64,000 nucleotides of DNA from an uncultured Acidobacteriota bacterium (lineage in GTDB: Bacteria > Acidobacteriota > Thermoanaerobaculia > Multivoradales > JBCCEF01): the NCBI GenBank assembly GCA_963843275.1, contig CAWJJM010000012.1, positions 221,756-285,755 of the forward strand. Reading direction: 5' to 3'. Shown here in pieces: positions 11,201 to 63,013 of this stretch (position 1 is its first letter; each line of letters begins with the position of its first letter). The position numbers and the translations under genes are program-made. The notes under the pieces are model-generated. The model was not told where the DNA came from and searched no databases. It was given only the letters and a program-made list of their open reading frames with translations.

Positions 11201-12857
11201 AGCCCCAGCGGCCGACCATGACACGCAGCGACATCACCGCCCGCTCGCGCAGCGAGTCGATCGGCGGGTTGGTGACCTGGGCGAAGCGCTGCGCGAAGAA
11301 GCGGTAGAGGCCCTGGGGGTGGGGCGACAGCATGGCGAGCGGCGTGTCGTCGCCCATCGAGCCCACCGGGTCTTCCCCTCCAGCGCCATCGGCGCCAGCA
11401 TGCGGTCGACGCTCTCGCGATGGTGGCCGAAGAGCGAGCTGCGCCGCCAGCAGCTCGGGCGCCGCCGGCCGGGGGGCGAAGGACTCGGCGTCGAAGCGCG
11501 CCGGCGGCGGCTCGACGAGCTGCCGCGCCGAGCCAGTCGCGGTAGGGGCGCCGCGCCGCCAACCGCCGCTTGATCGCGTCGCTGGCGCAGGATCTCGCCG
11601 CTCGCGGTGTCGACGCAGAGGATCTCCCCCGGCCCCAGCCGGCCCTTGCTCCAGCACCCGCTCGGGCGGCACGCGCACCAGGCCGGCCTCCGAGGCCAGC
11701 GATCACCCGGCCGTCCTCGACGATCCAGTAGCGCAGCGGGCGCAGGCCGTTGCGGTCGAGCGCGGCGGCGGCGAGCCGGCCGTCGGAGAAGACCAGCGCG
11801 GCCGGGCCGTCCCAGGGCTCGAGCAGGTCGAGTGGTAGTCGTAGAAGGCGGTCACCTCCGGCGCCATGTCGCGCGCCCCCTCGAACGCCTCGGGCACCAG
11901 CATCAGGGCGGCGTGGAGCGGGTCGCGGCCCGAGCGCACCAGCAGCTCGAAGAGGTTGTCGAGCATCCCCGAGTCGCTGGAGGCGTCGTCGAGCACCGGC
12001 AGGAGCTCGGCGAGCTCCTCGCCCCACACCTGCGAGGTGAGGTCGCGCTCGCGGGCCCGCATCCAGTGGCGGTTGCCGAGCAGGGTGTTGATCTCGCCGT
12101 TGTGGGCGAGCAGGCGGAAGGGCTGCGCCAGCTCCCAGGCGGGGGCGGTGTTGGTGCTGTAGCGCTGGTGGAAGACGGCGATCGCGGTCTCGTAGCGGGG
12201 ATCGGCCAGGTCGGCGTAGAAGCGGTCGAGCTGCGCCGCGATCATCATCCCCTTGTAGACCACGGTGCGGTGCGACAGCGAGGCGACGTGGAGGCGCACG
12301 CCCTCCACCCCCCGCAGCGCCGCCTCCATGCGGCGGCGGGCGAGGAACAGGCGACGCTCGAAGTGCTCGTCGCTCCACGCCGGGTCGCGCGCCAGCAGCA
12401 GGTGGAGCACCTCGGGGCGGCCCGCCGCCGCCACCTCGCCGAGCGCCTCGACGTCGACCGGCACCGGGCGCCATCCGAACACCCGCAGGCCGGTGCGCTC
12501 GGCCTGGCCGACCAGCGCCTCGAGGGCCGCCTCGCGCGCCCCGGCGTCCTCGCTCCACAGGAAGAGGGCGCCGAGCGCTAGGTCGCCGTCGGGCGAGGGC
12601 GTCGACGCCGCGAGCGGCCAGCTCGTCGCGCAGCAGCGGCGTAGGGGATCTGGGTGAGGCACGCCGGCGCCGTCGCCGCTCAGCCGGTCGGCGCTGACCG
12701 CGCCGCGGTGGCTGAGGTGGGAGAGCGCGCGCAGCGCCAGGCGCAGCGTCTCCGCACTGCGCCGGCCGCGGGCGTCGGCGACGAAGCCGATGCCGCAGCC
12801 GTCCCGCTCGTGGGCGGGTCGGTGGAGGCCCGGCGGCCTCCTGCTGGAGCTCTCCAT
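8267..12857 (-). CDS. gltB: Glutamate synthase large subunit (NADPH-GOGAT alpha); at least 3 frameshifts as assembled
   Basis: N-terminal amidotransferase ...[15 protein letters not shown]...; central ...[39 protein letters not shown]...; FMN/Fe-S ...[15 protein letters not shown]...[18 protein letters not shown]...[13 protein letters not shown]; GXGXG domain ...[11 protein letters not shown]...; pieces in ORFs 11703-12857, 10213-12939 and 8267-10519 (different frames). Confidence 0.85.
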
Positions 12858-16500: not shown

Positions 16501-19500
16501 CGACTCGAACACGGCGACGGTCTCGATCACCGTCAACCCGGTCGACGACCCGCCGGTCGCGGTGGCCGACACGGCACAGATCTTCGAGGACCCGGGCTCG
16601 CCGACGGCGCTCGACGTGCTGGCCAACGACAGCGACGTCGACGGCGGGCCGAAGCAGGTCGTCTCCGCCACCGATCCGGCGAACGGCACGGTGGCGCTGA
16701 CCCCGGCCGGCCCCGGCCCCTACAGCGGGCTGACCTACCTGCCGGACGCCAACTACTGCAACAGCCCGGCCGGTCCGTCGGCGACCCCGGACACCTTCAG
16801 CTACACCCTGAACGGCGGTTCGTCGGCGCTGGTCAGCGTCACCGTGATCTGCGTCAACGACCCGCCGGTCGCCGGCACCGACGCCTTCGACTTCGTCGGC
16901 AACACCGAGCTGCGCGTCGATCTCGCCGCGGCGGCGACGCCTGCCGCCCTGGAGACGACCGGTTCGGGCAGCGGCGTCCTCGACAACGACAGCGACCCGG
17001 TGGAGGGCGACCCGCTGTCGATCGTCGGCCTCCACGTCGGTGCCTGCATCGACAACAGCGCGCCCTTCGACTGCACCGACGCCGCGGTGGGCCGGGTGCA
17101 GCTCGGCAGCGACGGCAGCTTCAGCTTCCTGCCGGCCGCGGGCGACGGCGACGCCAGCGAGAGCTTCCAGTACACGCTCTCCGACGGCACCGACACGACG
17201 ACGGGAACGGTGAACCTGACCCGTGTGGCCCGCGTCTGGTACGTCAAGAACGACGCCGCGGGCGGCGGCACCGGCACCTCGGCCTCGCCGTTCGACACCA
17301 TCACCGCGGCGAACCTGTCAGATGACGACGGCGACGGCGACCTCACCGACGACCTCGACTCGGCCGGCGACTGGATCTTCGTCTACTACGGCGACGGCAC
17401 CTCGAACGGTCAGTCCACCGGCCTCGTGCTCGAGGGCGGCCAGCACCTGATCGGCGAGCACGTCGGCCTGTCGCTGCCGGTGAACCTCAACGGCAACGGC
17501 TCGCCGACCGTTCTGGTGGCGGCCGCCCCGGGCAACCGGCCGCGGCTCGACGACACGGTGGCCGACGGCTTCGACGGGGTCGAGGCGCACGACGTCGTGC
17601 CGGCCGAGGTCGCCGGCATGAACCTGGCCGGCAACATCAACGGGCTCGACTGGACGACCACCGCCGCCTTCGCCGGCGCCGGCACCTTCGCCGTCCACGA
17701 CAACGTGGTGCGCTCGGCCGGCGTCGAGGGCGTCGACGTCAACCTGGCGGGGAGCGGCAACACCGTCCTCTCGTTCCACGACAACGCCCTGACCGCGACC
17801 GGCACCGCCCTCGACGTCCAGGAGACCGGCAGCGGGGCCCTGACGATCAGCGCCTTCGACGACAACACGGTCGGCGGCAACACCGGCGGCTCGGGCCTGG
17901 TCGTCAACGGCGCCACGTTCGACGCGGTCCCCGGCGGCGGCATCGACACGGTCCTCGGCGGCACGACGGCGATCGGCGCCTCCGGCAACGGCGTCGGCCA
18001 GGCCGGCCTGATGCTCTCCAACGTCCAGGGCGACCTGCACTTCGCCAACCTGTCGGTCTACGCCGACTCGGGCGCGGGCCTCGGCGTCACCGGGACCGGC
18101 GCCGGCATGACCTTCCGGGTCAACTCCGGCGGCGGCGCGACCGGCGTCGTCCAGGCGATCAACGGGCCGGCGGTGTCGGCGAGCGCCGTGGCGTTCGACC
18201 TGCGGCTGTCCGACATGGACAGCACCAACAGCACGAGCCAGGGCGTGTCGCTGACCAACGTCACCGGCACCTTCTCGGCCGAGTCCGGCAGCGCGATCAC
18301 CAACGCCACCGGGACCGACTTCCTGATCAGCGGCGGCACCGCCAACGTCACCTACAAGGGCGCGATCACCGACGACGTCGGCCAGCTCGTCGCGGTCTCC
18401 GGCGCCACCGCCGGTACCAAGAGCTTCGAGGGGGCCATCACCGACGGCGACGACGGCGACGGCAGCGGCGTGTCGTTGTCCAGCAACACGGGCGCGACGG
18501 TGCGCTTCTCGGGCGGCCTGGTGCTGTCGACGGGTGCCAACCCGGCCTTCGCGGCGACCGGCGGCGGCACGGTGGAGATCTGCGACGAGACCCCCTGCAA
18601 CCCCGCCGCGACGGGCCTCGCCGTCAACAAGATCACCACCACGACCGGGACGGCGCTGAACGTGGCGAACACCAACATCGGCGCCAACAACCTCGAGCTG
18701 CGCAGCGTCTCGGCGGGCACGGCGGGGAGTGGGCCCACCAACGGCATCGTGCTCAACACCACCGGGTCGGGGGGCGGCCTGAAGGTCAAGGGCAACGGCT
18801 CGGCGGGCTCGGGCGGCACGATCCAGAAGACGACCAGCGACGCGATCGCGCTGACCAGCACGCAGCACGTCGCCCTGTCGTCGATGAACGTGCAGAACAG
18901 CGCCGAGAGCGGCATCCTCGGCTCCTCGGTCACGGATCTCGACCTCACCGGCTGTAGCTTCACCAACAACGGAGACGACTCGGCGGACGTCGGCGTCAAG
19001 GTCACGAACCTCGCCGGCTCGGCGACGTTCAGCGGCACCTCGATCACCGGCTCGGCGCTGGCCAACGTGTTCATCGACAACACCGCGGCGGCCTTGAGCT
19101 CGTTCACCATCTCGGGCGGCAGCTACGGCAGCCTGGGAACGGCGTTCGGCGGCAACTCGATCCTGCTCAACATCCGCGGCACGTCGACTCTGACCACCGG
19201 CAGTGTCAGCGGCATCACGGTGGCGAACAACAAGCCGGCCCGCGGCATCACCGTGCAGGCGCAGGACACGGCCACCATCTCCGACTTCACGGTGCAGACC
19301 AGCACCTTCACCAACAACGGCCTGCAGGCGAGCTTTGAGCAGTCGGGGTCGGCCAACCTGTCCTTCAAGCTGCTCAACAACCCGACGATGACGATGACGT
19401 TGCCGGCGGCGGGCACCAGCCATGCGGTCAACGTGTCGAGCTCGTCGACCTCGACGGGGGGCACCATCCAGGGCCGCATCCAGGGCAATACCATCGGCAA

Positions 19501-20011
19501 CGCCGCGGTGGCGAGCTCCGGCTCGCCGATCGGCAACGGCATCCGTGTCCTGGTCCAGGGCCGCACCACCGCCACGCTGCTCATCGACGGCAACACCATC
19601 CGCCAGGTGCCGCAGGCGCGCGGCATCGACGTCCAGTTCCTCGGGCCGCTCTCCTCGGGGCAGCCGCTGTCGCAGAGCGACGTCACGGTCACCGGCAACG
19701 ACGTCAACCCGCAGGATTCGACGGGCTTCCCGACCGCCGCCATCTACCTGGCGGCGGACAGCCAGGGCGGCTCACCGGTTCGCATGCGCTCCGACGTGCG
19801 CAGCAACACCGTGCCGGCCGGCGCCGCCTTCGACGCGCTACCGACGTACCTGATCGTCGACGAGGTCGCGGCGGCGGCGGAGGCGCAGCTCGTCGACACC
19901 GCGCCGGCGAGCGCGAGCTGCACCGCGCAACTGACCAGCACCAACACCGGCAGCGCCTCGGCGGCGGCCGGCTGCGCCCTGATCGCGGGCCCGATCAACA
20001 CGCCCCCCTAG
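13518..20011 (+). CDS. Giant (~2160 aa) secreted repeat protein/adhesin: at least 9 tandem ~95-aa cadherin/Ig-like (VCBS, tandem-95 type) repeats plus ~900-aa Gly/Thr/Ser/Asn-rich beta-helix-like C-terminal region; 2 frameshifts and 1 in-frame TAG as assembled
   Basis: Repeats of form VNDAPVAVDDTYAVDEGGVLNVSAPG..DTDAEGGSLTAALVSGPSHASSFTLNADGSFSYTHDGSETT.DTFTYKANDGSLDSNTATVSITV; frame 0 to ~14990, frame 1 to ~15285, frame 2 to 20011; TAG at 16109-16111; first ~200 aa may be a separate fused ORF (see findings). Confidence 0.75.
14340..16860 (+). repeat. Intragenic tandem repeat array (~285-bp period, several copies about 90% identical at DNA level) inside giant adhesin gene
   Basis: e.g. 14893-15185 and 16232-16525 are near-identical (gtgaacgcggtcaacgacgccccggtggcggtcgacgacacctacgcggtggacga...). 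Confidence 0.8.
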
Positions 20012-20059
20012 GAGCGCGGGGGGGGGCGCCCGGAACCGTCCGGGCGGGGAGGCGGGTGG

Positions 20060-20563
20060 ATGGCGGAACCTTTCCTCAGTGAGATCCGACTGATGGGCTT
20101 CGGCTTCCCACCGAAGGGCTGGGCGCTGTGCGACGGGCAGCTTCTCCCGATCAACCAGAACCAGGCGTTGTTCTCGCTGCTGGGGACGACCTTCGGCGGC
20201 GACGGGCGGGTCAACTTCGCGCTCCCCGACCTGCGCGCCCGGGTCCCGATCCACGTCGGCGGTGGGCACACCCTGGGCGAGCGCGGTGGCGAGCAGGGGC
20301 ACACCCTGAGCCTCGCGGAGATGCCCACCCACACCCACGTGCTCCAGGCGACGTCGAGCGACGGCACCCAGGTGATCGCCGCGGGAGCCCTGCTGGCGCG
20401 CGCGGCGCCTGCCAACCCCTATTCGGCCCCGACGAACCTGGCGGCGATGCAGGCCGCCTCGGTCGCCAACAACGGCGGCAGCCAGGCGCACCTCAACCTG
20501 CAGCCGCTCCTGACCCTCAGCTTCTGCATCGCCCTGCAGGGCATTTTCCCGAGCCCGACCTGA
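20060..20563 (+). CDS. Phage tail-collar domain protein (MdpB/COG4675-like), paralogue 1 of 3
   Basis: MAEPFLSEIRLMGFGFPPKGWALCDGQLLPINQNQALFSLLGTTFGGDGRVNFALPDLRARVP...HTHVL = Collar (PF07484-like) signature; C-terminus ...LNLQPLLTLSFCIALQGIFPSPT; GGAGG RBS. Confidence 0.85.
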   Translation: MAEPFLSEIRLMGFGFPPKGWALCDGQLLPINQNQALFSLLGTTFGGDGRVNFALPDLRARVPIHVGGGHTLGERGGEQGHTLSLAEMPTHTHVLQATSSDGTQVIAAGALLARAAPANPYSAPTNLAAMQAASVANNGGSQAHLNLQPLLTLSFCIALQGIFPSPT

Positions 20564-20572
20564 GGAACGACG

Positions 20573-21073
20573 ATGGCCCAACCCTACGTCGGGGAGATTC
20601 GCATCTTCGGCGGTAACTTCGCGCCCGCGGGGTGGATGTTCTGCGAAGGGCAGCTGTTGCCGATCTCGGAGAACGAGACGTTGTTCCAGCTCATCGGAAC
20701 GACCTACGGCGGAGACGGACAGGACACCTTCGGGCTCCCGGATCTGCGGGGCCGATTGCCGGTCCACCAGGGCAACGGCTTCGTTCTCGCGCAGGCCGAC
20801 GGCGCGGAGGAGGTCACCCTGACCGTGAGCCAGATCCCGTCCCACGCACACCCCCTGCTCGCGGCCAACGCCGTCGGGAACGATCCCAACCCCCAGGGCA
20901 ATCTGCTCGCCGAGAGCTCCGCGGTGTCGATGTACCAGAGCGGTGCGGCGAACGCCGCGATGGCGACGTCGATCGCCGCGGTGGGCGGCAGCCAGCCGCA
21001 CACCAACTTCCAGCCCTATCTCTGCCTGAACTTCATCATCTCTTTGTTCGGCATCTTCCCCAGCCCGACCTAG
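20573..21073 (+). CDS. Phage tail-collar domain protein, paralogue 2 of 3
   Basis: MAQPYVGEIRIFGGNFAPAGWMFCEGQLLPISENETLFQLIGTTYGGDG...LPDLRGRLP...PSHAHPL; C-terminus ...NFQPYLCLNFIISLFGIFPSPT; 9-bp spacer from paralogue 1. Confidence 0.85.
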   Translation: MAQPYVGEIRIFGGNFAPAGWMFCEGQLLPISENETLFQLIGTTYGGDGQDTFGLPDLRGRLPVHQGNGFVLAQADGAEEVTLTVSQIPSHAHPLLAANAVGNDPNPQGNLLAESSAVSMYQSGAANAAMATSIAAVGGSQPHTNFQPYLCLNFIISLFGIFPSPT

Positions 21074-21080
21074 GAGCGAC

Positions 21081-21608
21081 ATGGCCGACCCCTTCGTCGC
21101 CGAGATCCGCATCTTCCCCTTCAACTTCGCACCCAAGGGCTGGGCCTTCTGCGACGGCCAGCTCCTGCCGCTGTCGCAGAACACCGCGCTGTTCTCGCTG
21201 CTCGGGACCACGTACGGTGGCAACGGCAAGTCGAACTTCGCGCTGCCGGATCTTCAGGGCCGGGCGCCGATGCACCCTGGCCAGGGCCCGGGTCTCTCGC
21301 TGCACGACCTCGGCGAGACCGGCGGGTCGGAGACGGTGACCCTTCTCGAGTCCGAGACGCCCGCTCACGGGCACACGCTGCAGTCCAACGGCGCGCCCGC
21401 GAACCGGACCACTCCGGTGGGCAACTCCATCGCCCGGGTCTCCGGTGCGACGCCCTACTCCGACGGCGCCGCGAACCCGCCGAGGGTGCCGATGTCCGAC
21501 CAGGCCCTCGCCCCCGCGGGCGGCGACCAGCCGCACAACAACATGATGCCCTTCCTGACCCTCAACTTCTGTATCGCCCTGCAGGGCGTCTTTCCGCCGC
21601 GCACCTGA
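21081..21608 (+). CDS. Phage tail-collar domain protein, paralogue 3 of 3
   Basis: MADPFVAEIRIFPFNFAPKGWAFCDGQLLPLSQNTALFSLLGTTYGGNGKSNFALPDLQGRAP...PAHGHTL; C-terminus ...NMMPFLTLNFCIALQGVFPPRT; 7-bp spacer from paralogue 2. Confidence 0.85.
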   Translation: MADPFVAEIRIFPFNFAPKGWAFCDGQLLPLSQNTALFSLLGTTYGGNGKSNFALPDLQGRAPMHPGQGPGLSLHDLGETGGSETVTLLESETPAHGHTLQSNGAPANRTTPVGNSIARVSGATPYSDGAANPPRVPMSDQALAPAGGDQPHNNMMPFLTLNFCIALQGVFPPRT

Positions 21609-33686: not shown

Positions 33687-33829
33687 GCTCGGTTCCTCGC
33701 GGGAAGGTCGGAGGACGGCCCCCGGGCGGCGCAGTGTAGCACCCGCGCGGCCGCCGGCAGCCACCGCCGCTGACGTAGACTCGGCCGACGACCGCGGGGC
33801 GCGGCGCGCCGCGCCCGGTGGAGGTCCCG

Positions 33830-35197
33830 ATGCGTTCCCATCCCCTGTTCCGCTCCCTCGCCGCCGCGCTCTCGGCGCTCCTGCTGGCCGCCTGCGCCAC
33901 CACCGACCTGCCCCCGATCCCGGCGGCCGGTCCCGGCTTCCGGCCGCTGCCCGACGAGGTCGAGCTGTGGCAGGAGGCGCGCGCGGAGGAGGCCCGGCTC
34001 CTGGCCGAGGCGCCCGTCTACGACGATGCGGCGTTGACCGCCTACCTGGAGGACGTGGCGGCGCGGCTGACGCCGCCGGCGATGGCCTCCAACCCGCTGC
34101 TGTCGCACCGCGTCACGGTGCTGGCCGACCCGACGTTGAACGCGTTTTCGTATCCCCATGGAAGCCTGTACGTGCACACCGGCCTGTTGGCCCGCCTCGC
34201 CAACGAGGACCAGCTCGCCACCGTCCTCGGCCACGAGATCAGCCACGTCGAGTACCGGCACATGGTGCGCCACCGGCGCGCCGCCGCCAATCGCGCGGTC
34301 GGCGTCGGGATCGCCGCCTTCGCGGCCCTGGTGGTGCTGACCGCCGCGGAGATCGACGCCGCCGACGAGGGCAAGTGGGTGCGCGCCGAGAACCTCCATT
34401 TCTTCGCTGAGCTGGTGGTGGACCTGGGTCTGCAGATCGCCTTCGTCGCGGCGGTCAACGGCTACGGTCGCAAGCTCGAGCTGGAGGCGGACCGGGGAGG
34501 GTTCCGCAAGCTCGCCGCGGCCGGCTACCGGCCGGCCGAGGCGTCCGAGATGTACGAGACGCTGCTCGCCTCCACCGCCGGCGAGGCCGGACGTCTCGAG
34601 ACCTTCTTCTTCGGCTCGCACCCACGGCTGACCGAGCGCATCGACAGCGCCCGCCGCTGGGCCGAGAGCGGTGTTGCGGAGGAGGACGCCGCGGCGGACG
34701 AGGGGCCGGCGCCGGCGGGAGACGCGGAGCGCTTCGCCCGCGTCCTCCAGCCGGTGTTGCGCGACGACGCGCGGATGAACCTCGAGCGGGGGCGGCTCGA
34801 CCTCGCCGCGGCGGACCTCGAGCGGGCGCTCGGCTGGGACGCGGACGACGCCGAGGGCCGCACCCTGCTCGGCGAGCTCCGCCTGCTGCAGGCGGCGGCG
34901 ACGCCCGCCGCGGAGGCGGAGGCGCTGCGCGACGACGCGCGCCGCGCCTTCCACGAGGCGATCCGCCTGGATCCCGACCTGGCGGAGCCGCACCGCGAGC
35001 TGGGGCTGTTGCTGGCGGACGACGGCGACGCCGCCGGGGCCTGCCGCGAGCTCGGCCACTACCTGGAGCTGGCGCCCGACGCCGACGACGCCGCGGAGAT
35101 CGACGACCGGCGGTACGAGCTCGAGGAGGCCGGGGCCTGCGCCCTTCCCGCCGCGCCCCCTCCCGAGGCCGCCGGCGCCGTCTACATCCGCGAGTAG
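33830..35197 (+). CDS. M48-family Zn metallopeptidase lipoprotein with TPR-like C-terminal region
   Basis: MRSHPLFRSLAAALSALLLAAC (lipobox); HEXXH in ...LATVLGHEISHVEYRHM...; C-terminal Ala/Asp/Glu-rich helical repeats. Confidence 0.75.
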   Translation: MRSHPLFRSLAAALSALLLAACATTDLPPIPAAGPGFRPLPDEVELWQEARAEEARLLAEAPVYDDAALTAYLEDVAARLTPPAMASNPLLSHRVTVLADPTLNAFSYPHGSLYVHTGLLARLANEDQLATVLGHEISHVEYRHMVRHRRAAANRAVGVGIAAFAALVVLTAAEIDAADEGKWVRAENLHFFAELVVDLGLQIAFVAAVNGYGRKLELEADRGGFRKLAAAGYRPAEASEMYETLLASTAGEAGRLETFFFGSHPRLTERIDSARRWAESGVAEEDAAADEGPAPAGDAERFARVLQPVLRDDARMNLERGRLDLAAADLERALGWDADDAEGRTLLGELRLLQAAATPAAEAEALRDDARRAFHEAIRLDPDLAEPHRELGLLLADDGDAAGACRELGHYLELAPDADDAAEIDDRRYELEEAGACALPAAPPPEAAGAVYIRE

Positions 35198-37073: not shown

Positions 37074-37580
37074 ATGCGCAAGCTCTCCCCCGGCGCCGTG
37101 CGGACCCCTGGAGCGACGTTGCTGCTCCTCGCGCTGCTCGGTGCATGCGGCGGCTCGAGCCCGACCGAGCCGCTGGTCTCCCCGTCGCCGGCCTCCGTGG
37201 AGGCGGCCTCCTACGGGTTGCTCAACTCGGCGCGGCACGACGCCGGCGTGGACGACCTCGTCCTCGATCCCCAGATCACCGAGGTGGCCCGCGACTACAG
37301 CCGCAAGATGCGGGACGAGGGGTTCTTCGACCACATCGACCCGGCGGGCAACATGGTCGACACCCGTCTGCGGGTGGCGGGGGTGCGGTTCACGGTGGTG
37401 GGGGAGAACCTGGCCAACGTCAGCCACTCCTCCGATCCGGCCCGGGTGGCGCACCAGCTCCTGATGGGCAACGCGGTGCACCGCAGCAACATCCTCGACC
37501 CGCGCTTCAGCGAGGTCGGGGTGGGCGTGGCGCAGAGCGGCGACGTCTACTGGATCACCCAGATCTTCGTGCGGCCCTGA
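37074..37580 (+). CDS. CAP/SCP/PR-1 (YkwD-like) domain lipoprotein
   Basis: MRKLSPGAVRTPGATLLLLALLGAC (lipobox) ...LLNSARHDAGVDDLVLDPQITEVARDYSRKM...GHFDH...GENLA...HQLLMGNAVHRSNILDPRFSEVGVGV...YWITQIF: CAP-domain motifs. Confidence 0.75.
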   Translation: MRKLSPGAVRTPGATLLLLALLGACGGSSPTEPLVSPSPASVEAASYGLLNSARHDAGVDDLVLDPQITEVARDYSRKMRDEGFFDHIDPAGNMVDTRLRVAGVRFTVVGENLANVSHSSDPARVAHQLLMGNAVHRSNILDPRFSEVGVGVAQSGDVYWITQIFVRP

Positions 37581-43684: not shown

Positions 43685-45451
43685 CTAGGCGGACGCCTCG
43701 ACGACGGCGCGGTCGCGCAGCAGGTCGGCGGCCGGCGACAGCGGCGCGAAGGTGAGGATCTTGTTGATCCGCTCCACGGCTTTGACGTGGTCGCCGATCG
43801 CCTGGTAGAGGACCACCTCCGCGTAGAGCTTGTCGGCGAGGGAGTTGATGCGGTCGCCGACCGCCGACGCGTGAACGCCCTCGGGGTAGCGCTCCAGGTA
43901 CTCGGCACCGTTGTCGATGTCCTGGAAGCTCGACACCTTGGCCTGGAGGCGCTGGGCGGCGAGCGTCGCCAGCTCGGCATCGCGGCCCTGGTCGGCGAGC
44001 TCCTCGAGCGCGGCGAGGTGATCGAGCTGCGGCGCCAGCACCTTCAGGCCACGGTCGGCGCGCTCCGCCTCCGGCGAGCCGGGCGCCCGTTCCACCGCCC
44101 GCAGGTACTCGCGGACCGCCCGCGTCTGGTCGCCCAGCCGGCTGTAGGCGTCGCCGAGCTTCAGCGCCACGCGCGGCACCTCCGGCGCGTCGGGCCAGTT
44201 CGAGAGGTAGCGCTCGAGGAACGACGTCTCGACCACGTCGCCCGACAGCACCTCGCGGGCCTTCGGGTAGAGGTTGGCGAGCTGCGCGTCGAGCGCCTTC
44301 TTCTCCTCGCCGAGCAGGTCGAGGAAGGGCGTGTCGGGGGTGAGCTCGGCGACCTGGTCGATCTGGCGCTGGTAGGCCCGCACCAGCTCGCCGTAGTCGC
44401 GCTCCAGCACCGGGCGCCCGAGCTCGGCGTCGCGCTGCCGGTGGAGCTTCTCGATGCGCAGACCCTCCGCCGCCCGGCCCCGCGGCCAGGCGGCCAGCGC
44501 CTCGTCCTTGACGAAGCGCACGGTGGCGGCGGAGACCTTGCCCACGGCGTCGTCGTAGCGGTCCTCGGCGGTCACCTGGACGCCGCCCGCCCAGGCGAGC
44601 AGCGCCGCCTGGGTCCGTTGGCGAAAGGCGTCCGGGTCCGCCGGGGTGGCGTCGGGCTTGAGCAGCTTGGCGCGCGCCTCCCCGGCGCGCACCCGCTCCT
44701 CGAAGTAGGGGTGGGTGCGCCAGTACCCGTACTTCTTCGACTGCGGGATGCGCGCCTCCATGCGGGCGAACAGGCGGTTGGCGCCCTCCGGATCGAAGCC
44801 TGCGGAGGCGGCCCAGCGCTGCCCCTCGGCGTCCGCCTCGTCCTCGTACTCGCGGCTGAAGCTGCGCAGCAGCAGCTCGGACACGATCAGGCTGGTCGCC
44901 GCCGCCCCCTCGATGCGCTCGGCACCCTGGTTGCGGTAGTTGGGGTCGTAGATGGCTCCGGGGTCGCTGGTGCGATCGGGGCCGGAGTTGTCGGCCCCGA
45001 TGATCACCCCCACCAGCAGCGCCTGGCTGAGCACGTTGAGCAGGGTGTTGCGGCGCTGCATCTTGAGGTGGTGGTTGAGCACCACGTGCGCCACCTCGTG
45101 GCCGAGCAGCGCGGCCAGCATGTCGTCGTCGAGGCCGATGTCGAGCATGCCGCGGGTGACGAAGACCTGCCCGCCGGGCAGCGCGAAGGCGTTCGGCTCC
45201 GCCATGTCGACCAGGTGGAAGGTCAGCGGGAAGGCGGTGTAACCGGCCTCACGGGCGACCCGGTAGCCGATGTCGGCGACGCGCCGGGCCGCGGCGGGGT
45301 CGTCCACCGGACCGTACTGCTCGAGGGCGCGGCGGGCGACCTCCAGGCTCTTCTCGTAGAGCTCGGGATTGTCGACCTTCTGCGCCGCGGCCGGCCACGC
45401 CGCCAGGGCGATCAGGAGGGCGAGGCAGGAGACCAGCGGGCGTCGGATCAT
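43685..45451 (-). CDS. M48-family Zn metallopeptidase with signal peptide and C-terminal TPR-like helical-repeat domain
   Basis: MIRRPLVSCLALLIALAAWPAAAQ signal; ...LLGHEVAHVVLNHH... (HEXXH); 588 aa intact. Confidence 0.8.
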   Translation of the reverse strand: MIRRPLVSCLALLIALAAWPAAAQKVDNPELYEKSLEVARRALEQYGPVDDPAAARRVADIGYRVAREAGYTAFPLTFHLVDMAEPNAFALPGGQVFVTRGMLDIGLDDDMLAALLGHEVAHVVLNHHLKMQRRNTLLNVLSQALLVGVIIGADNSGPDRTSDPGAIYDPNYRNQGAERIEGAAATSLIVSELLLRSFSREYEDEADAEGQRWAASAGFDPEGANRLFARMEARIPQSKKYGYWRTHPYFEERVRAGEARAKLLKPDATPADPDAFRQRTQAALLAWAGGVQVTAEDRYDDAVGKVSAATVRFVKDEALAAWPRGRAAEGLRIEKLHRQRDAELGRPVLERDYGELVRAYQRQIDQVAELTPDTPFLDLLGEEKKALDAQLANLYPKAREVLSGDVVETSFLERYLSNWPDAPEVPRVALKLGDAYSRLGDQTRAVREYLRAVERAPGSPEAERADRGLKVLAPQLDHLAALEELADQGRDAELATLAAQRLQAKVSSFQDIDNGAEYLERYPEGVHASAVGDRINSLADKLYAEVVLYQAIGDHVKAVERINKILTFAPLSPAADLLRDRAVVEASA

Positions 45452-47406: not shown

Positions 47407-49312
47407 TCAGCCGGAGGGCTCGTCCGCCGCCGGGGCCGGCAGGGACGACAGCAGGGCGTGGAGCTGCTCGATGCCGGCGGGCTTGACCAGGTGGTGGTCG
47501 AACCCGGCCTCGCGGGTCCGCTGGCGGTCCGCGTCCTGTCCCCAGCCGGTGAGCGCCACCAGCGTCAGCCGCCCGCCGCCGGGCTGCCGGCGCAGGCGCC
47601 GGGCGGTCGCGTAGCCGTCCGGCGCGGGCATGCCGAGGTCGAGCAGGACCACCTCGGGCGCCAGGTCGCGCGCCGCGCGGAGGGCCTGCTCGCCGTCGTA
47701 GACGGCCACGACCCGGTGGCCGCAGCCCGCCAGCAGGGTGCGCAGCGAGTCGGCGGCGTCGCGGTTGTCGTCCACCACCAGGATGCGGCGCGGCACCACT
47801 TCCGGGACGGAGGGTCCCGGGCCGTCCGGCTCGCCCTCCGAGCGCGCCGCCGCCGTCGGCAGGCGGAGGATGAAGCGGCTGCCGCGGCCGGGTCCCTCGC
47901 TCTCGGCGCGCACCGTTCCTCCGTGGAGGGCGACCAGCGAGCGGACGACCGTCAGACCCAGCCCCAGGCCGCCGTGGACGCCGCCGCCGGGCGGCCGCTC
48001 CTGCACGAAGACGTCGAAGATCTCCCGTTGCAGGGCGGGTGGGATGCCGCGCCCGGTGTCGGAGACGGTGACCGTGACCGCCCCGTCTCCGGTCTCGGCG
48101 GTGATGCCGATGTGCCCCGGCTGCTCGGTGAACTTGGCGGCGTTGTTGAGCAGGTTGGCGAGCACCTGGGAGAGCCGGGAGGGATCGGCGTGCAGCCACA
48201 CCGGTTCCGCGGGCAGGTGCACCTCCAGTCGGTGCCCGCCGCGCTCGATCTCCGCGCTGGCTCGCCTCGACCGCGTTGCGCACCACCTCGGCCAGCTCCA
48301 CGTCCCGGCGACGCAGCTCGATCTTGCCGCGGGTGAAGCGGGAGACGTCGAGCAGGTCGTCGACCAGGCGGACCAGCAGCTCGGTCTGGCGGTCGAGGGT
48401 GCCGAGGACCCGCTCGGCGAGCGCGGCGTCGGAGCCCGCCTGCCGCAGCAGCTCGACGCCGGTGCGGATCGGCGCCAGCGGGTTGCGCAGCTCGTGGGCC
48501 AGGGTGGCCAGGAACTCGTCCTTGCGCTCGTCCGCGCGCCGCAGCGCGTCCTCCATCTCCATGCGCTCGGTGATGTCGGTGTTGGTGCCGAACCAGCGCA
48601 GCACCTCGCCGCGTTCGTTGCGGATCGGGATGGCGCGGGAGAGGAACCAGCGGTAGGTCCCGTCGGCGCCGCGCAGGGGAAAGGTGTCCTCCCACTCCTC
48701 GCCGCGCGCGACCGAGCGCCGGAAGTGCTCGGTGACCCGCTCGACGTGGTCGGGGTGGTGGACCTTGCGCCAGCCCCAGCCGCGCATCTCCTCGAGGGTG
48801 GTGCCGGTGTAGTCGAACCACCGCTTGTTGTACCAGAAGATCCAGCCGTCGCCGTCAGCCATCCAGGCGAACTGGGCGATGTTGTCGGCGAGGGTGCGGA
48901 AGCGTTCCTCGCTCTCGCGGAGCGCCTCCTCGGCCTCCCGGCGGGCGGTGATGTCGCGCGCCACCTTCGACGCCCCGACGATGCGGCCCGCCTCGTCGCG
49001 CACGGGCGAGATGGTCAGCGAGACGATGAGCCGGCGGCCGTCCCGTGCCACCCGCTCGGTCTCGAAGTGCTCGATCCGCTCGCCCCGCACCAGCCGGGCG
49101 AGGATCTCGTCCTCCTCGGGATGACGCTCCGGGGGGATGATCAGGCGGATGTGCTGGCCGATCGCCTCCTCGGCGCTGTACCCGAACATGCGCTCCGCGC
49201 CGCGGTTCCAGGAGCGGATGATCCCCTTGGTGGTCTTGCCCACGATGGCGTCGTGCGAGGACTCGACCAGGGCGGCGAGGAACGCCTGATGGGCGGGGTC
49301 GAGCGGCGGCAT
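47407..49312 (-). CDS. Hybrid sensor histidine kinase (PAS-PAS-HisKA-HATPase_c-REC), one frameshift ~48240 as assembled
   Basis: PAS: ...[32 protein letters not shown]...; second PAS ...[29 protein letters not shown]; His[18 protein letters not shown]; other frame (47407-48222) HATPase ...[16 protein letters not shown]...[10 protein letters not shown]...GGLGLGL... and REC ...[15 protein letters not shown]...VLLDLGMP...LVALTGWGQ. Confidence 0.85.
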
Positions 49313-49401
49313 CGAGCAAGCATATCGCCCCCGGCGGGGGCTGCGGCCGGTGGTGTATGGTCGCCCCAGGAGTTCCGACCCACCCCCAGGAGAGCCCAGC
49401 G

Positions 49402-57034: not shown

Positions 57035-57065
57035 CCCCCGCCCGCGGTTGGCGGTCGGGCGGGGG
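57035..57065 (+). terminator. Strong GC hairpin: 10-bp perfect stem (cccccgcccg / cgggcggggg) with 11-nt loop
   Basis: Read directly: cccccgcccg-cggttggcggt-cgggcggggg, 9 nt after the stop of DUF4252-like copy 2 and ~20 nt before the M14 peptidase ATG. Confidence 0.45.
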
Positions 57066-57083
57066 AAGCCGTATCCTAGGCGG

Positions 57084-58996
57084 ATGGCCGTACCGCGCCC
57101 CCTCCGTCCGCTCCGCTCTGCCCTCCCCGCCCTCGCTCTCCTGGTCTCCGCCGCCGCTCCCGCCCTCGCCGAGGAGCCGGTGCCGGGGGCGTGGCGCACC
57201 GTGGCGGAGCGCAGCGACTTCCGGGCCACCGGCTCCTACGACGACACGATGGCGCTGCTGCGCCGGCTGGCGGAGCGCTCGTCGGCGATCGAGCTGACCC
57301 GCTTCGGCACCTCGGCCGAGGGCCGCGAGCTGCCGCTCGTCGTGGTCTCCACGGCGGGGGCGTTCACGCCCGCGGCGGCGGCCCGCCTGGCGGCGGAGCG
57401 CGGCACGCCGATCGTGCTGGTGCAGAACGGCATCCACGGCGGCGAGATCGACGGCAAGGACGCCTGCCTGATGCTGCTGCGCGACATCGCCCTGGGGCGC
57501 CGCGCGGAGCTCGCCGCGGCGGCGACGCTGCTGGTGGTGCCGATCTACAACGTGGACGGTGCCGAGAAGGTGTCGCGGTTCAACCGGCCCAACCAGAACG
57601 GGCCGGTCGAGGGGATGGGCTTCCGCACCAGCAGCGACGGCCTCGACCTCAACCGCGACCACCTCAAGGTGGTGAGCCCGGAGGCGCGGGCGATGGTGCG
57701 GCTGTTCGACCTCTGGCGGCCCCACCTGCACGTCGACGACCACGTCACCGACGGCTCGGACCACGGCTGGGTGCTCACCTGGTCGGTCGCCGAGGCGCCC
57801 CAGCTCGCGGCGCCGCTCGACGCCTGGATCGGCCGGCACCTGCCGGCGGCTCTCGCGGCCACCGCCGCCGCCGGGCATCCCAACGGGCCGTACGTCGACC
57901 TGCTCGACCGCGCCGACCCCACCGCGGGGTTCTCGTCGATGGTCGCCCAGCCGCGCTACGCCACCGGGTACTACCCGCTGCGCAACCGGCCGTCGGTGCT
58001 GGTGGAGATGCACGCCACCGCGCCGTACCGCGACCGGGTGCTGGCCAACCGCGACTTCCTCGCCGCGCTGCTCGCCGAGGTGGGCCGCGACGGGCGGGCC
58101 CTGGTCGCGGCGGTGGCCGCCGCCGAGGCGGAGACGGTCGCCCTCGGGCGGGCCGGCGCGCCGCCGTCGACGCTGGCGCTGGACTGGGAGGCGTCGCCGG
58201 CGGGGGACCGCCGGGTGGTCCCGTTCGACGACTGGTCCCTCGAGGACTCGGTGGCGATGGGAGTCCCGATCCTCACCTACCGGCGGGGAGTGCCCCACCC
58301 GGTGGAGGTGCCCTGGCTCCACGCGCCGGTGCCGACGGCTCGCGGTGGCGCGCCCGCGCGGCTACCTGGTGCTGCCGGGCTGGCCGGCGATCGAGCGGCG
58401 CCTGGCCGTCCACGGGTTGCGGGTCGAGCGGCTGACCGCCCCGGCCGAGGTGCGGGCCGAGCGCTTCGAGCTGGGGGAGGCGAGCCTTGGCGGACGGCGT
58501 CTACCAGGGGCTCACCCGGGTGACGGCGCCGGTCGACCGCGTCGCGGCGACCGTGCGGGTGCCCGCCGGGACGCTCTGGGTGCCGGCCGACCAACCGGAC
58601 TTCGCCGTCGCCGCCGCGCTGCTCGAGCCGGACGCCCCGGACTCGCTCTTCGCCTGGGGCCTGCTGTCGACCCTGCTGGAGACCCGCGAGTACATCGAGC
58701 CGCGGGTCCTCGAGCCGCTGGTGCGCGAGATGCTGGCCGCCGAGCCGGAAACCGCCGCGGCGTGGAAGGCGGCGCTCGAGGACCCCGACTTCGCCGCCGA
58801 CCCGCGGGCGCGCTGGGCCTGGTGGTACCGCAGGACCCCGTACTTCGCGGCCCAGGAGCCGGCCTACCCGGTGCTGCGCGCGGTGGTCCGCCCGGTGTTG
58901 GAGACCGTGCCCTGGCCCGCGTTGCCGCCGGGTGCCGGACCTCCGCCCGCGCCCGCGCCCGCGCCGCCGCCGGCCGCGGGAGGGCGCCGTGGCTAG
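57084..58996 (+). CDS. M14-family Zn carboxypeptidase with signal peptide; 2 frameshifts (~58330, ~58490) as assembled
   Basis: MAVPRPLRPLRSALPALALLVSAAAPALA signal; ...VQNGIHGGEIDG... ...PIYNVDGAEK...LNRDH... (M14 Zn-binding/catalytic motifs); C-terminal continuation in ORFs 58345-59121 and 58487-58996. Confidence 0.7.
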
Positions 58997-60734
58997 CACC
59001 CATCGGCCCCTGTTCCCGCCCACCTACCGGCTGGTGGGCTACTGCGTCGTCGTCGGCGCCTGCGGGGCGGCGGCGGCGCTGTCGTTCGACTTCCTGGTCG
59101 AGATCGCCCAGCGCTTCCTGATCCACGGCATCGGCGGCTTCAACCCGCCGCCGGCCGGCGTCCTCGACCCGCCGGTGGTGGTGCCGCCCTGGACCTCGCG
59201 CTGGTGGTTCCCGGTGTCGACCACCCTCGGCGGCCTCTTGTCGGGCTGGCTCGTCTTCCGCTTCGCACCCGAGGCCGAGGGCCACGGCACCGACGCCGCG
59301 ATCGCCGCCTACCACGAGGGCGGCAAGCCGATGCCGGCCCGCATCCCGGTGGTCAAGGCGATCGCCTCGGCGATCACCATCGGCTCGGGCGGGGTGGCCG
59401 GGCGCGAGGGGCCGACGGCGCAGATCTCGGTGGGGCTGGGCTCGCTGCTCGCCAAGGGCCTGGGACTGCGCGGCCAGGAGCGCCGCATCCTGCTGCTGGC
59501 GGCGATGTCGGCGGGCCTCGCCGCCGTCTTCCGGGCGCCGCTCGGGATGGCCATCTTCGGCGTCGAGATCCTCTACGGCGGCATGGTGTTCGAGGCCGAG
59601 GCGCTCATCTACACCATCATCGCCGCGGTCACCGCCTACGCCCTGCACGGCTTCTACGCCGGCTGGGAGCCGATCTTCGTCATCCCGCAGGGCCTGTCCT
59701 TCCACCGGCCGGCGGCACTGCTCGGCTACGCGCTGCTCGGCATCCTGGCCGGCCTGCTGGGGACCGTGCTGCCGCCGCTCTTCTACCGCACCCGCGAGCT
59801 CTTTCTGCGCATCCCGACCATCCCCCACATCAAGCCCGCGATCGGCGGCCTGGGGGTGGGCCTGATCGGCATGGTGGCGCCGAGCGTCCTCGGCGCCGGC
59901 TACGGCTGGGTGGAGAAGGCGCTCGCCGGCAGCCTGCCGCTGGCCACCATGCTGCTGATCCTGCTGCTCAAGGGGCCGGCGATGTCGTTGACCATCGGCT
60001 CCGGCGGCTCGGGCGGCGTCTTCGGCCCCACGGTGGTGGTGGGCGCCATGCTCGGGGGCGGCACAGGCCTCGCCCTCCAGCATTTCCTGCCCGGCCTCGA
60101 GGTCAACGTCGCCGCCTTCGTGCTGGTCGGGATGGCGGCGGTCTTCGCCGGCGCCGCGCGCACCCCGATCTCCACCCTGATCATGACCGCGGAGATGACC
60201 GGCGGCTACGGCCTCATCGTGCCGGCGATGCTCGCCAACGTGATCTCCTTCATGATCCAGCGCTCGCTGACCGCCGGCTTCACCTATCCGACCCTGTACC
60301 GCTCGCAGGTCGAGTCGCGCGAGGACTCGCCGGTGCACCGCGGGGTGTTCGTGCGCCGGGCGTTGGAGATGATCGAGGGGGGTGGCGTCGAGCGCGGCCA
60401 GCTCACCCTGCCGCGATTGGTGTCGCTGCTGCGCTACGGCGAGTCGATCCCGGTGGCCGAGGGCGGCGGCATGCTGGTCGCCTTCGAGATCGCCGCGGAC
60501 AGCCCCCTCGACGAGCACACCGTGGCGGAAGGGGTCGGGAGCATCCCCGAGGCCACCGCGGTGGCGGTGCTGCGCGAGGGCAAGATGGTGGTGCCGCGCG
60601 GCCCCACCCGCTTCCGCGCCGGCGACCAGCTCATCGCCGTGGCCACCGAGGAGGGCCGCCGGGCGCTGGCCGCCGCCGCCGGGGCCGACCGCGCTCCCGC
60701 CTCGCCGCCGGCGGGCGAGGGCGACAGCGACTAG
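58989..60734 (+). CDS. ClC-family voltage-gated chloride channel/antiporter with C-terminal TrkA-C (RCK_C) domain
   Basis: GTG start; ...GSGGVAGREGPTAQIS... (GSGIP-like), ...GVEILYGG..., ...GGVFGPTVVVGAMLG... (GxFxP), ...AARTPISTLIMTAEMTGGY...; C-terminal ...GKMVVPRGPTRFRAGDQLIAVATEEG. Confidence 0.85.
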   Translation: MASTHRPLFPPTYRLVGYCVVVGACGAAAALSFDFLVEIAQRFLIHGIGGFNPPPAGVLDPPVVVPPWTSRWWFPVSTTLGGLLSGWLVFRFAPEAEGHGTDAAIAAYHEGGKPMPARIPVVKAIASAITIGSGGVAGREGPTAQISVGLGSLLAKGLGLRGQERRILLLAAMSAGLAAVFRAPLGMAIFGVEILYGGMVFEAEALIYTIIAAVTAYALHGFYAGWEPIFVIPQGLSFHRPAALLGYALLGILAGLLGTVLPPLFYRTRELFLRIPTIPHIKPAIGGLGVGLIGMVAPSVLGAGYGWVEKALAGSLPLATMLLILLLKGPAMSLTIGSGGSGGVFGPTVVVGAMLGGGTGLALQHFLPGLEVNVAAFVLVGMAAVFAGAARTPISTLIMTAEMTGGYGLIVPAMLANVISFMIQRSLTAGFTYPTLYRSQVESREDSPVHRGVFVRRALEMIEGGGVERGQLTLPRLVSLLRYGESIPVAEGGGMLVAFEIAADSPLDEHTVAEGVGSIPEATAVAVLREGKMVVPRGPTRFRAGDQLIAVATEEGRRALAAAAGADRAPASPPAGEGDSD

Positions 60735-60757
60735 CGGTCACCGTCGGCGGCGGACGC

Positions 60758-61069
60758 TCAGGTCTTGCACTTGCAGCTCGCCCTGTCGATCCGCGGGCAC
60801 CTGCAGCAGGCAGTTCCCGCCGCGCACGTCAGCGAGCACGAGTCGAGGATGCTGCAGGTGATGCTGCAGGAGCTGGCGCCGGGGCCTCCGGCGGTGCAGC
60901 TCCCTCCGTCGTCTCTCGGATCTCCCCGGTCGCGGTCGAGATCTTGCGCGGCGATCGTGGCGAGGGTCGCCGCGGGGACCGTCCCGTCATCGAGCGGGAG
61001 CTCGCCGCGCTCCCAGGCCAGTCCGAAGCCCCGGACGACCTGCGAATCACCAAACCGAGGGTCCGTCAA
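60758..61069 (-). CDS. Hypothetical small protein (103 aa) with Cys-rich C-terminal tail (11 Cys in last 45 aa)
   Basis: ...DDGGSCTAGGPGASSCSITCSILDSCSLTCAAGTACCRCPRIDRASCKCKT*; same strand as kup, 53 nt downstream of it; GC3-rich codons; competing + strand ORF 60765-61106 is S/R/P-rich and less protein-like. Confidence 0.35.
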   Translation of the reverse strand: MTDPRFGDSQVVRGFGLAWERGELPLDDGTVPAATLATIAAQDLDRDRGDPRDDGGSCTAGGPGASSCSITCSILDSCSLTCAAGTACCRCPRIDRASCKCKT

Positions 61070-61121
61070 GGGTTGCGGCGTGGGTACGCCGCGGAGTCGA
61101 GGGTGACGGCGGAAGGAGCCG

Positions 61122-63013
61122 TCAGATCTCGACCTGCATCCCGAGCTCGACCACCTGCTGCGGCGGGATGCGGAAGAAGCCGGTCGCCGGGGTGGCGTTA
61201 CGCGACATCAGGGCGAAGAGGCGCTCGCGCCACAGCGCCATGCCGGGCACCCGCTTCGTCGGGAGCAGGGTGACACCCCCCAGGTAGTAGGTGATGTCGT
61301 CGGGATGGAGGTCGACGCCCGCGCCGTGGGCGGCGCGCAGGGCGCCGGGGATGTCGGGCGTCTGCTGGAAGCCGTAGTGGATGACGATCCGGACGAAGCC
61401 CTCGCGGTACTCCTTGATCTCCAGGCGGTCGCGCACCGGCACCCGCGGCACCTCCTCGGTGACCACGGAGACCAGCACCACGCGCTCGTGGAGCACCCGG
61501 TTGTGGCGCAGGTGGTGGATGAGGATCGGCGGCGTGCCGCGGCGGTGGCCGGTGAGGAAGGCGGCGGTGCCGGGCACGCGGACCGGCGGGTCCCGGGAGA
61601 TCCCCAGCAGCAGCTCGTCGAGCGGCTCCAGCCCCTCGTCGACGTGCAACGCGAGCAGCTCGCGGCCGCGGCGCCAGGTCGACATCAAGACGTAGACCCC
61701 GGCCGCGACGAGCAGCGGGAACCAGCCGCCGTCGGGGATCTTCAGCAGGTTGGCGCCGAAGAAGACGCCGTCGACGGCGAGCAGGAAGACGGTGAGCGGG
61801 ATCAGCCAGCGGCGCCGCCAGCCCCAGCGCTCGCGCGCCACCAGGTAGGCGAGCAGCGTGGTGATGACCATGGTGGTGGTGATGGCGACGCCGTAGGCGC
61901 CCGCCAGGTTCGACGACGACCCGAAGCCCAGCACCAGCAGGATCGTCGCCACCATCAGCGCCCAGTTGACGAGCGGGATGTAGATCTGCCCGATCGCCTC
62001 CGACGAGGTCTGGACGATCTTCAGCCGCGGGATCTGGCCGAGCTGGACCGCCTGGCGGGTGAGCGAGAAGGCGCCGGAGATCACCGCCTGCGAGGCGATC
62101 ACCGTGGCGACGGTGGCGAGGATCGAGCAGCGGCCAGCGCAGCGCGTCGGGCGCCAGGCGGTAGAAGGGCTGGCGGACCGCCGCCGGCTCGGCGAGGAGC
62201 AGCGCTCCCTGGCCGAAGTAGTTCAGCAGCAGGGCGGGCAGGACCAGCGAGAACCAGGCCAGGCGGATGGGCCGTTTGCCGAAGTGGCCCATGTCGGCGT
62301 AGAGGGCCTCGCCGCCCGTGACGACGAGGAAGACGCGCCCCCAGCGCCAGCATCCCGGCCCAACGGTGGACGAGGAAGAAGCGCAGCGCCCAGGTCGGGT
62401 CGACGGCCCGCACCACGTCGGGCTCGAGCAGGATGCCGCGCACGCCGAGCGCGGCGAGGGTGCCGAACCAGACCAGCATCACCGGCCCGAAGTAGCGCCC
62501 GATGCCGGCGGTGCCGTGGCGCTGGAAGAGGAACAGCCCGAGCAGGATGGCGACCGACAGGGCGATCACCCAGGGGCCCAGCGACGGCGCCGCCACCTCC
62601 AGACCCTCGACCGCCGACAGCACCGAGATGGCGGGGGTGATGGCGCCGTCGCCGTAGAGCAGGGCGGCGCCGAAGATGCCCATCACCGCGATCAGACGGC
62701 GGCGGCGGCGCATCCGCCCGCGCCACGGGCCGAGCAGGGCGAGCAGCGCCAGGATCCCCCCCTCGCCCTCGTTGTCGGCGCGCAGCACGTAGCCCAGGTA
62801 CTTGATCGAGATGACGATGACCAGCGACCACAGGATCAGCGACAGGATGCCGAGGATGTTGACCGGGTCGGCGGGGAGGAAGCGGCCCTCGCCGCGGAGC
62901 GACTCGCGGAAGGCGTACAGCGGGCTGGTGCCGATGTCGCCGTAGACGATGCCGAGGGCGGTGAGCGAGGAGAGGGCGAGGCGGCCGCCGTGCTCCGTGT
63001 CCGGAGAGCTCAT
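61122..63013 (-). CDS. kup: KUP/HAK/KT-family K+ uptake transporter; 2-3 frameshifts (62100-62340) as assembled
   Basis: N-terminus [38 protein letters not shown]...; middle ...[31 protein letters not shown]...; C-terminus ...[28 protein letters not shown]...[40 protein letters not shown]...; pieces in ORFs 62099-63013, 61198-62292 and 61122-62102. Confidence 0.85.

Follow-up and report, generated by a model that had tools for sequence, protein, structure and literature searches.

What a short, cysteine-rich open reading frame (ORF) between two ion-transport genes encodes, and whether it is a working gene, is the question raised by positions 60735-61121 of the window, the whole 64-kb stretch of DNA analysed here. 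The ORF lies on the minus strand at 60758-61069, runs for 103 codons from a TTG start to a TGA stop, and has a C-terminal end that reads ...SCTAGGPGASSCSITCSILDSCSLTCAAGTACCRCPRIDRASCKCKT. An earlier note on this DNA, which gave the ORF and its C-terminal sequence correctly, offered several functional readings of the cysteine-rich tail, and overlooked its descent from the 3' portion of a longer gene.

Geometry of the Locus

The ORF is enclosed by two convergent genes. A ClC chloride channel with a C-terminal TrkA_C domain (58932-60734, plus strand; Pfam Voltage_CLC, 3.7e-83, and TrkA_C) ends with a TAG stop at 60732-60734, and kup, encoding a K+ uptake transporter (61122-63013, minus strand; Pfam K_trans and K_trans_C), ends with a TGA stop at 61122-61124, which leaves the gap of 387 bp that had been reported. 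From the kup stop to the TTG there are 52 nt (61070-61121), one less than the 53 nt first given, and G+C-rich hairpins lie within this spacer or abut it. Only 23 nt separate the stop of the ORF from the stop of ClC, the two being convergent. The tail contains 10 cysteines, at residues 58, 68, 72, 78, 82, 88, 89, 91, 99, and 101, and not the 11 once counted; their spacing, C-x3-C-x5-C-x3-C followed by CC-x-C and C-x-C, is as originally described.

The length of the ORF carries no evidential weight, because in 80% of shuffles of the gap some frame has a stretch of 103 or more codons uninterrupted by a stop. Its cysteine density, 10 in 47 aa, is the maximum among stop-free 47-aa windows in the six frames of the 64 kb, and lies on a continuum with nine other off-frame sites that hold 8-9 cysteines. 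On the plus strand, an overlapping ORF of 113 aa (60765-61106) is in phase with ClC and has its third codon positions in common with the minus ORF, the usual geometry of a shadow frame. Read-through of ClC into this plus-strand ORF was considered and ruled out, since the frame is the antisense shadow of a homologous coding frame.

Homology to a Putatively Secreted Family

An exhaustive phmmer search of 1.84 billion representative sequences found 16 relatives of the minus ORF, with E-values from 1.5e-8 to 6e-4. Fifteen of these are 174-253 aa long, and residues ~10-102 of the query align to the C-terminal ~90 aa of the relatives. A word-indexed protein search with the same ORF returned no match, which reflects a limit of sensitivity and not absence. 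A family profile made from 15 relatives, with the query excluded, was searched against the window in six frames with all filters off, and it matches a single place, the minus frame at 61207-60761 (E 1.5e-31, 105 bits). There is no second family match in the six frames of the 64-kb window, where the next best E-value is 0.35. By this sequence homology, the minus frame is unquestionably derived from a coding sequence of this Cys-rich, putatively secreted family.

The homology also refutes the simplest alternative, that the minus ORF arose by chance in non-coding high-GC DNA or that the plus-strand ORF is the real gene. The shuffles described above and codon statistics that favour no frame would suit such a reading, but the family profile aligns every cysteine on the minus frame, and the plus-strand ORF matches neither Pfam nor the family HMM and has a codon log-likelihood ratio (LLR) of -28 bits, worse than that of the minus ORF. 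Both forms of this alternative are extremely improbable, and the original assignment of the plus-strand ORF as a shadow of the coding-derived minus strand holds.

The relatives are hypothetical proteins of about 200-250 aa, recorded so far only as gene calls on metagenomes and MAGs. In order, they comprise a hydrophobic leader, an N-domain, an acidic Gly-rich linker, and a 10-Cys C-terminal domain; signal peptides were called by inspection together with the N-terminal helix in AF2 models. Motifs that recur in the N-domain are HAEV..G.V, IA.D, HVFVLQ, and V.GFGLSH..G. The last ~95 residues of this unnamed secreted family (for example P0004, P0005, P0009, P0020, and P0021) are homologous to the window ORF, and the two have in common the GFGL strand, the acidic/Gly linker, the Cys spacing, GG-x-G, and A-C-C. 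Unlike the family, the window copy is without a signal peptide and without profile positions 1-124, carries Thr for Tyr, and is not codon-adapted.

Extent of the Truncation

The window copy covers positions 125-219 of the 222 in the profile, the last ~43%. Positions 1-124, which are missing, comprise the signal peptide and the first six strands of a seven-strand N-terminal beta domain (profile ~25-135); only the last strand is left, marked by the GFGL motif and aligned with the family strand 'VxGFGLSHxxG'. This strand and the linker ('VVRGFGLAWERG') occupy 60902-61054, and the Cys domain (residues 57-103) occupies 60761-60901, both on the minus strand. No hydrophobic N-terminal segment is found in the minus ORF, whereas the full-length relatives all have one plus the N-domain. 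The minus frame is open from just past kup to the normal stop position of the family. The missing N-terminal part, absent from the entire window, would need ~375 nt, and only 52 nt lie between the kup stop and the TTG; there is no space for it because the C-terminal domain of kup is complete to the stop 52 nt upstream.

Structure models agree with this division. The AF2 model of the full-length relative P0020, made from a 19-sequence alignment, has a mean pLDDT of 80. In it the leader forms an N-terminal helix, residues 28-131 fold into a beta domain of seven strands, and a linker helix leads on to a Cys-rich mini-domain of four strands. The GFGL motif is the last strand (E120-131) of the beta domain. 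For the window ORF modelled with its own alignment, residues 1-55 have a pLDDT below 50 and residues 56-103 reach about 90, with four short strands. Because AF2 places the GFGL strand last in a seven-strand domain and residues 1-55 are below 50, the ORF as modelled begins inside a domain, and consists of an orphan strand, a linker predicted to be disordered alone, and an intact Cys domain.

Neighbouring Genes and Quality of the Assembly

The state of the flanking genes bears on whether the truncation belongs to the genome or to the assembly. The K_trans_C domain of kup is matched from 1 to 151 of 151 Pfam positions and is followed by a natural stop. The kup gene itself is broken into three reading frames by two +1 shifts, one near 62,290-62,330 and one near 62,100-62,130, and the gene caller of the source genome entered two proteins for it, of 304 and 326 aa. 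A frameshift fusion of the ORF with a kup fragment was ruled out, as K_trans_C is complete to the last profile position and ends at a natural stop.

Further housekeeping genes that appear frame-broken lie at 2149-3646 (plus), 8267-12857 (minus), 47407-49381 (minus), and 57048-58996 (plus). These are serA, with 2-Hacid_dh_C across two ORFs; the glutamate synthase large subunit gene gltB, with GATase_2, the central part, and Glu_synthase in different frames; a hybrid sensor kinase without its N-terminal part; and an M14 carboxypeptidase. The frame breaks suggest an indel-prone, possibly long-read, consensus rather than mass pseudogenisation.

A full-length gene might accordingly exist here or elsewhere, the contig having lost sequence or been misjoined where kup ends. 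The splitting of kup into three frames and of serA, gltB, the M14 peptidase, and the sensor kinase, a pattern typical of uncorrected long-read consensus, would favour such an artefact. The errors seen, however, are single-base frame shifts and not deletions of several hundred bases, the 3' ends of kup and ClC are complete and sensibly spaced, and about 375 nt would need to vanish from precisely the interval that separates the fragment from the kup stop. Misassembly is unlikely, yet not negligible given the many single-base frame breaks in housekeeping genes.

Several other loci of the window were noted as well. In the region 13518-21608 (plus), a very large cadherin-like/Big_9 repeat protein, from about 13.5 to 20.0 kb, is split into ORFs, and is followed by two proteins with a phage-tail-collar domain at 20060-20563 and 21081-21608, with a similar-sized ORF between them (20573-21073). 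Two M48-peptidase/TPR paralogs lie about 10 kb apart (33818-35197, plus; 43685-45451, minus). A small gene of the CAP (cysteine-rich secretory protein) family, at 37074-37580 (plus), is upstream of a pstC/pstA-like pair of phosphate ABC permease genes.

Codon Usage and Expression Signals

The window has a G+C content of 75%, and GC3 is ~0.97 in its well-scoring genes. The GC3 bias ascribed to the minus ORF by the earlier note is real only in a relative sense: GC3 is 0.85 against 0.97-0.98 in the adjacent genes, and the codon adaptation index (CAI) is 0.48 (0.60 in the Cys tail and 0.39 in the head) against 0.71-0.86 in genes. This CAI is under the 5th percentile (0.66) of 47-codon windows from real genes. 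Codon log-likelihood is about -5.7 per codon for the minus ORF and -4.7 for the 3' end of ClC, and the log-odds total -4 bits for the minus ORF, compared with +0.5 to +1 bit per codon in well-scoring genes. Scanned in 180-nt windows, the gap stays below the coding threshold in every frame. Within the minus ORF, GC3 is higher in the Cys domain (0.93) than in the head (0.79), a difference of marginal significance (p = 0.05); a higher GC3 in the Cys domain was tested as a trait of the family and is not one.

Signals for translation are also poor. The TTG at 61069 is the sole in-frame ATG, GTG, or TTG of the minus ORF, the open frame upstream contains no start codon, and no Shine-Dalgarno-like motif precedes the TTG. 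Consensus scans of the gap found no promoter and no terminator, including none between kup and the ORF, and an Rfam search of the gap found no match. The RNA of 60700-61140 (minus) is predicted to fold more stably than shuffled sequences (z = -3.2), with nested G+C-rich hairpins spanning the kup stop (about 61134-61075) and a further hairpin at the stops of ClC and of the minus ORF (about 60735-60760). These predicted hairpins could be terminators that lack a U-tract, and those across the kup stop would count weakly against efficient read-through. The called proteins of the source genome include both kup fragments and the adjacent TrkA_C protein, all as singletons, and do not include the minus ORF. 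An expressed gene would be marked by host-like codons, a ribosome-binding site ahead of a credible start, and a gene call; the minus ORF has none of these.

These observations bear on the possibility that the ORF is a functional, leaderless mini-protein of 103 aa, made from the TTG or a non-canonical start on a kup read-through transcript, with a cytoplasmic Cys domain of, for example, metal-binding or redox function. The Cys domain is fully kept and confidently modelled, the frame is open and stops at the normal position of the family, no consensus terminator intervenes between kup and the ORF, and stand-alone Cys-domain proteins are known in the family (P0035 and a lipoprotein-like form of 87 aa). 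The stand-alone forms seen, however, all have a leader and respect the domain boundary, whereas this ORF begins within the beta domain, with an orphan strand and ~50 aa of predicted disorder. A lone TTG without a Shine-Dalgarno sequence, the CAI, the hairpins over the kup stop, and the silence of the gene caller also speak against it. Such a mini-protein is unlikely. Slightly more doubtful is the specific version in which the fragment is translated on the kup transcript and a disulfide module that is normally extracellular now serves in the cytoplasm, beside K+/Cl- genes, as a metal- or redox-active mini-protein.

A role tied to the K+/Cl- transport cluster, once proposed as an alternative, finds no echo in other genomes. 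No family member is near kup in any of 80 kup loci, and neither an ortholog nor a similar short form is found downstream of kup there; the neighbours of the family are not conserved. A scan of genome contigs with the C-terminus of this kup gave a best identity of 57%, and no close relative.

The Ten-Cysteine Domain

The Cys domain of the window copy follows the pattern C-x2-GG-x-G-x3-C-S-x2-C-x5-C-S-x2-C-x5-CC-x-C-x7-C-x-C, and that of the family is C-x2-GG-x-G-x3-C-S-x2-C-x3-6-C-S-V-x-C-x2-G-(Y)-Y-A-C-C-x-C-x5-8-C-x-C. All 10 cysteines, GG-x-G, A-C-C, and the invariant Gly and Ala columns are kept, so the conservation of the cysteine pattern in related sequences, put forward earlier as a check, is confirmed. 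Of the 18 columns that reach 70% conservation or more across 34 members, the window copy keeps 15 and intact members keep 13-18. It departs from the family by Ala for Ser, Leu for Val, and, just before A-C-C, Thr in place of the Tyr that 85% of members have there. A C-terminal HMM gives the window domain 91 bits, level with intact members and training members, a comparison that is partly circular since the training set was picked by similarity to the query.

At the DNA level, a 12-nt tandem repeat at 60848-60871 (GATGCTGCAGGT / GATGCTGCAGGA) encodes CSIT / CSIL on the minus strand inside the Cys domain. Palindromes of the CTGCAG type recur across 60768-60900 and are the DNA face of Cys-Ser codon pairs.

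Searches of Pfam, NCBIfam, PADLOC, and PHROGs with the ORF and its relatives gave no meaningful match, and a literature search for the family motifs returned only coincidences with degenerate primers. Foldseek found nothing in the PDB below E = 9 with the window model and nothing below 0.05 with the full-length model, and no significant match among viral models; a sequence profile search of the PDB likewise found no match. The ~45-aa Cys domain is quite likely a domain family that these four collections neither describe nor model and that has no counterpart in the PDB.

Comparison with Known Systems

Three kinds of Cys-rich protein invite comparison with this domain. Bacterial metallothioneins of the SmtA/BmtA type and metal-sensing tails, to which the earlier note likened the segment, likewise have a high Cys density with C-x-C and CC. 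In contrast to these, the segment has no Pfam match at E ≤ 0.1 and no NCBIfam match, every intact relative carries a signal peptide ahead of the domain, and the relatives have no link to metal or ion-transport genes. The signal peptides of the relatives point to disulfides rather than cytoplasmic metal binding, and the metallothionein reading is not supported.

The SCIFF/ranthipeptide precursors (NCBIfam TIGR03973 and relatives) also carry a short Cys-rich C-terminal segment, and the same note had suggested a RiPP core of this kind. In such a reading, SCIFF/ranthipeptide- or lanthipeptide-like, a leader of about 55 aa would precede a Cys/Ser/Thr-rich core, and the maturase would be encoded elsewhere. 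The tail is indeed C-terminal and rich in Cys, Ser, and Thr, but no tool result favours a precursor: there is no Pfam precursor match and no NCBIfam match at E ≤ 1, and the Cys spacing differs from that of SCIFF. The absence of a nearby maturase, remarked on from the start, is borne out, with no Radical_SAM or SPASM domain in the window genes scanned and no radical-SAM, LanB/C/M/KC, or YcaO protein among the ~47 ORFs of the 64 kb scanned against Pfam. As for lanthipeptides of classes I-IV, no LanB/LanC, LanM, LanKC, or LanL domain is encoded in the window or beside family members, and no maturase recurs beside the family genes. The segment is homologous to the folded end domain of signal-peptide proteins of about 200-250 aa and is not a precursor of ~45 aa. 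A RiPP precursor is highly improbable.

Granulin and knottin-type modules are disulfide-rich mini-domains. By concept they offer an analogy, as the domain is a beta-rich module of ~45 residues, is predicted to hold about five disulfides, and closes a secreted protein in the family; it has no significant structural match in the PDB or among viral models.

Distribution and Context of the Family

The family is thinly spread. The 10 members checked in cluster tables are all singleton clusters, each present on one or two contigs, and where a name is given it is 'hypothetical protein'. The G+C content of the host loci ranges from 32% to 74%. A metagenome scan with the Cys-domain alignment found only five distant loci, and a viral scan for the family found no match and no phage association.

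No neighbours are conserved across the family loci examined. Neighbourhoods include type II secretion/type IV pilus genes, pairs of a TonB receptor and MauE, type I-E CRISPR-Cas, toxin-antitoxin modules, an M14 peptidase, and amino-acid biosynthesis genes. An apparent synteny with a locus that has an M14 peptidase beside a family member (L092) was set aside as coincidence, as the homology is limited to the Cys domain. In a Bacteroidota-like locus of 32% G+C (L083, 1-7695), a family member follows two tandem three-gene units, each made of a TonB-dependent receptor, a MauE-family membrane protein, and a 345-aa protein of unknown kind.

Paralogs often lie close together, as in L081 (7896-8690 and 9502-10203), L084 (5335-6153 and 8273-9031), and also L089. 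In L090, a frameshifted, degenerate family copy (~10300-10577) lies about 2.7 kb from an intact paralog. Stand-alone forms of the Cys domain are P0035 and an uncalled 87-aa ORF in L089 (4972-5235), which has a GTG start, a GGGAGG Shine-Dalgarno sequence, and a lipobox-like leader joined directly to the Cys domain; all such forms have their own signal or lipoprotein leader. From their sequences, the family members would be accessory, exported, disulfide-stabilised proteins, perhaps with a binding or antagonistic role. Secretion and disulfide bonding of the intact relatives are both deduced.

Origin of the Fragment

The minus ORF is probably a non-functional, 5'-truncated gene remnant, or pseudogene. 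The ancestral gene would have encoded a secreted two-domain disulfide-rich protein, of which the fragment represents the 3'-terminal ~95 codons. Such a protein, like the intact relatives, would have opened with a Sec-type signal peptide, followed by ~100 aa folded into a seven-strand beta domain; a short helical stretch would then have joined this to a domain of ~45 aa, whose 10 cysteines probably form five disulfides. A deletion or rearrangement would have taken the promoter and start codon together with the signal peptide and all but the last beta strand, so that the remaining piece now abuts the 3' end of kup. It could still be transcribed by kup read-through, with no credible translation start and no export signal, and it is this lack that argues for a remnant. 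The degenerate copy beside an intact paralog in L090 is a precedent for remnants in the family.

Three observations run counter to a simple remnant: the Cys domain is undegraded, the frame is open, and GC3 in the Cys domain exceeds that in the head. Had long neutral decay lowered the GC3, some invariant residues should have been lost. All three are as compatible with a very recent truncation as with continued selection for a shortened protein. In the first case the atypical codons would reflect foreign origin; in the second, the shortened protein would still be under selection. We infer that the fragment is non-functional and that the truncation is recent, the latter because the Cys domain is still intact.

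Significance

The minus ORF is a real, previously uncalled, coding-derived feature, and of an ordinary kind, a 5'-truncated fragment. For the source genome little is at stake beyond the annotation of a remnant between kup and ClC. In a genome of such G+C content, neither the length of an ORF nor its GC3 bias has any value as evidence, and the question was settled only by an exhaustive profile search, the word-indexed search having come back empty. The parent family is rare, phylogenetically scattered, secreted, and often found as tandem paralogs, and its compact 10-Cys domain could merit definition and characterisation on its own.
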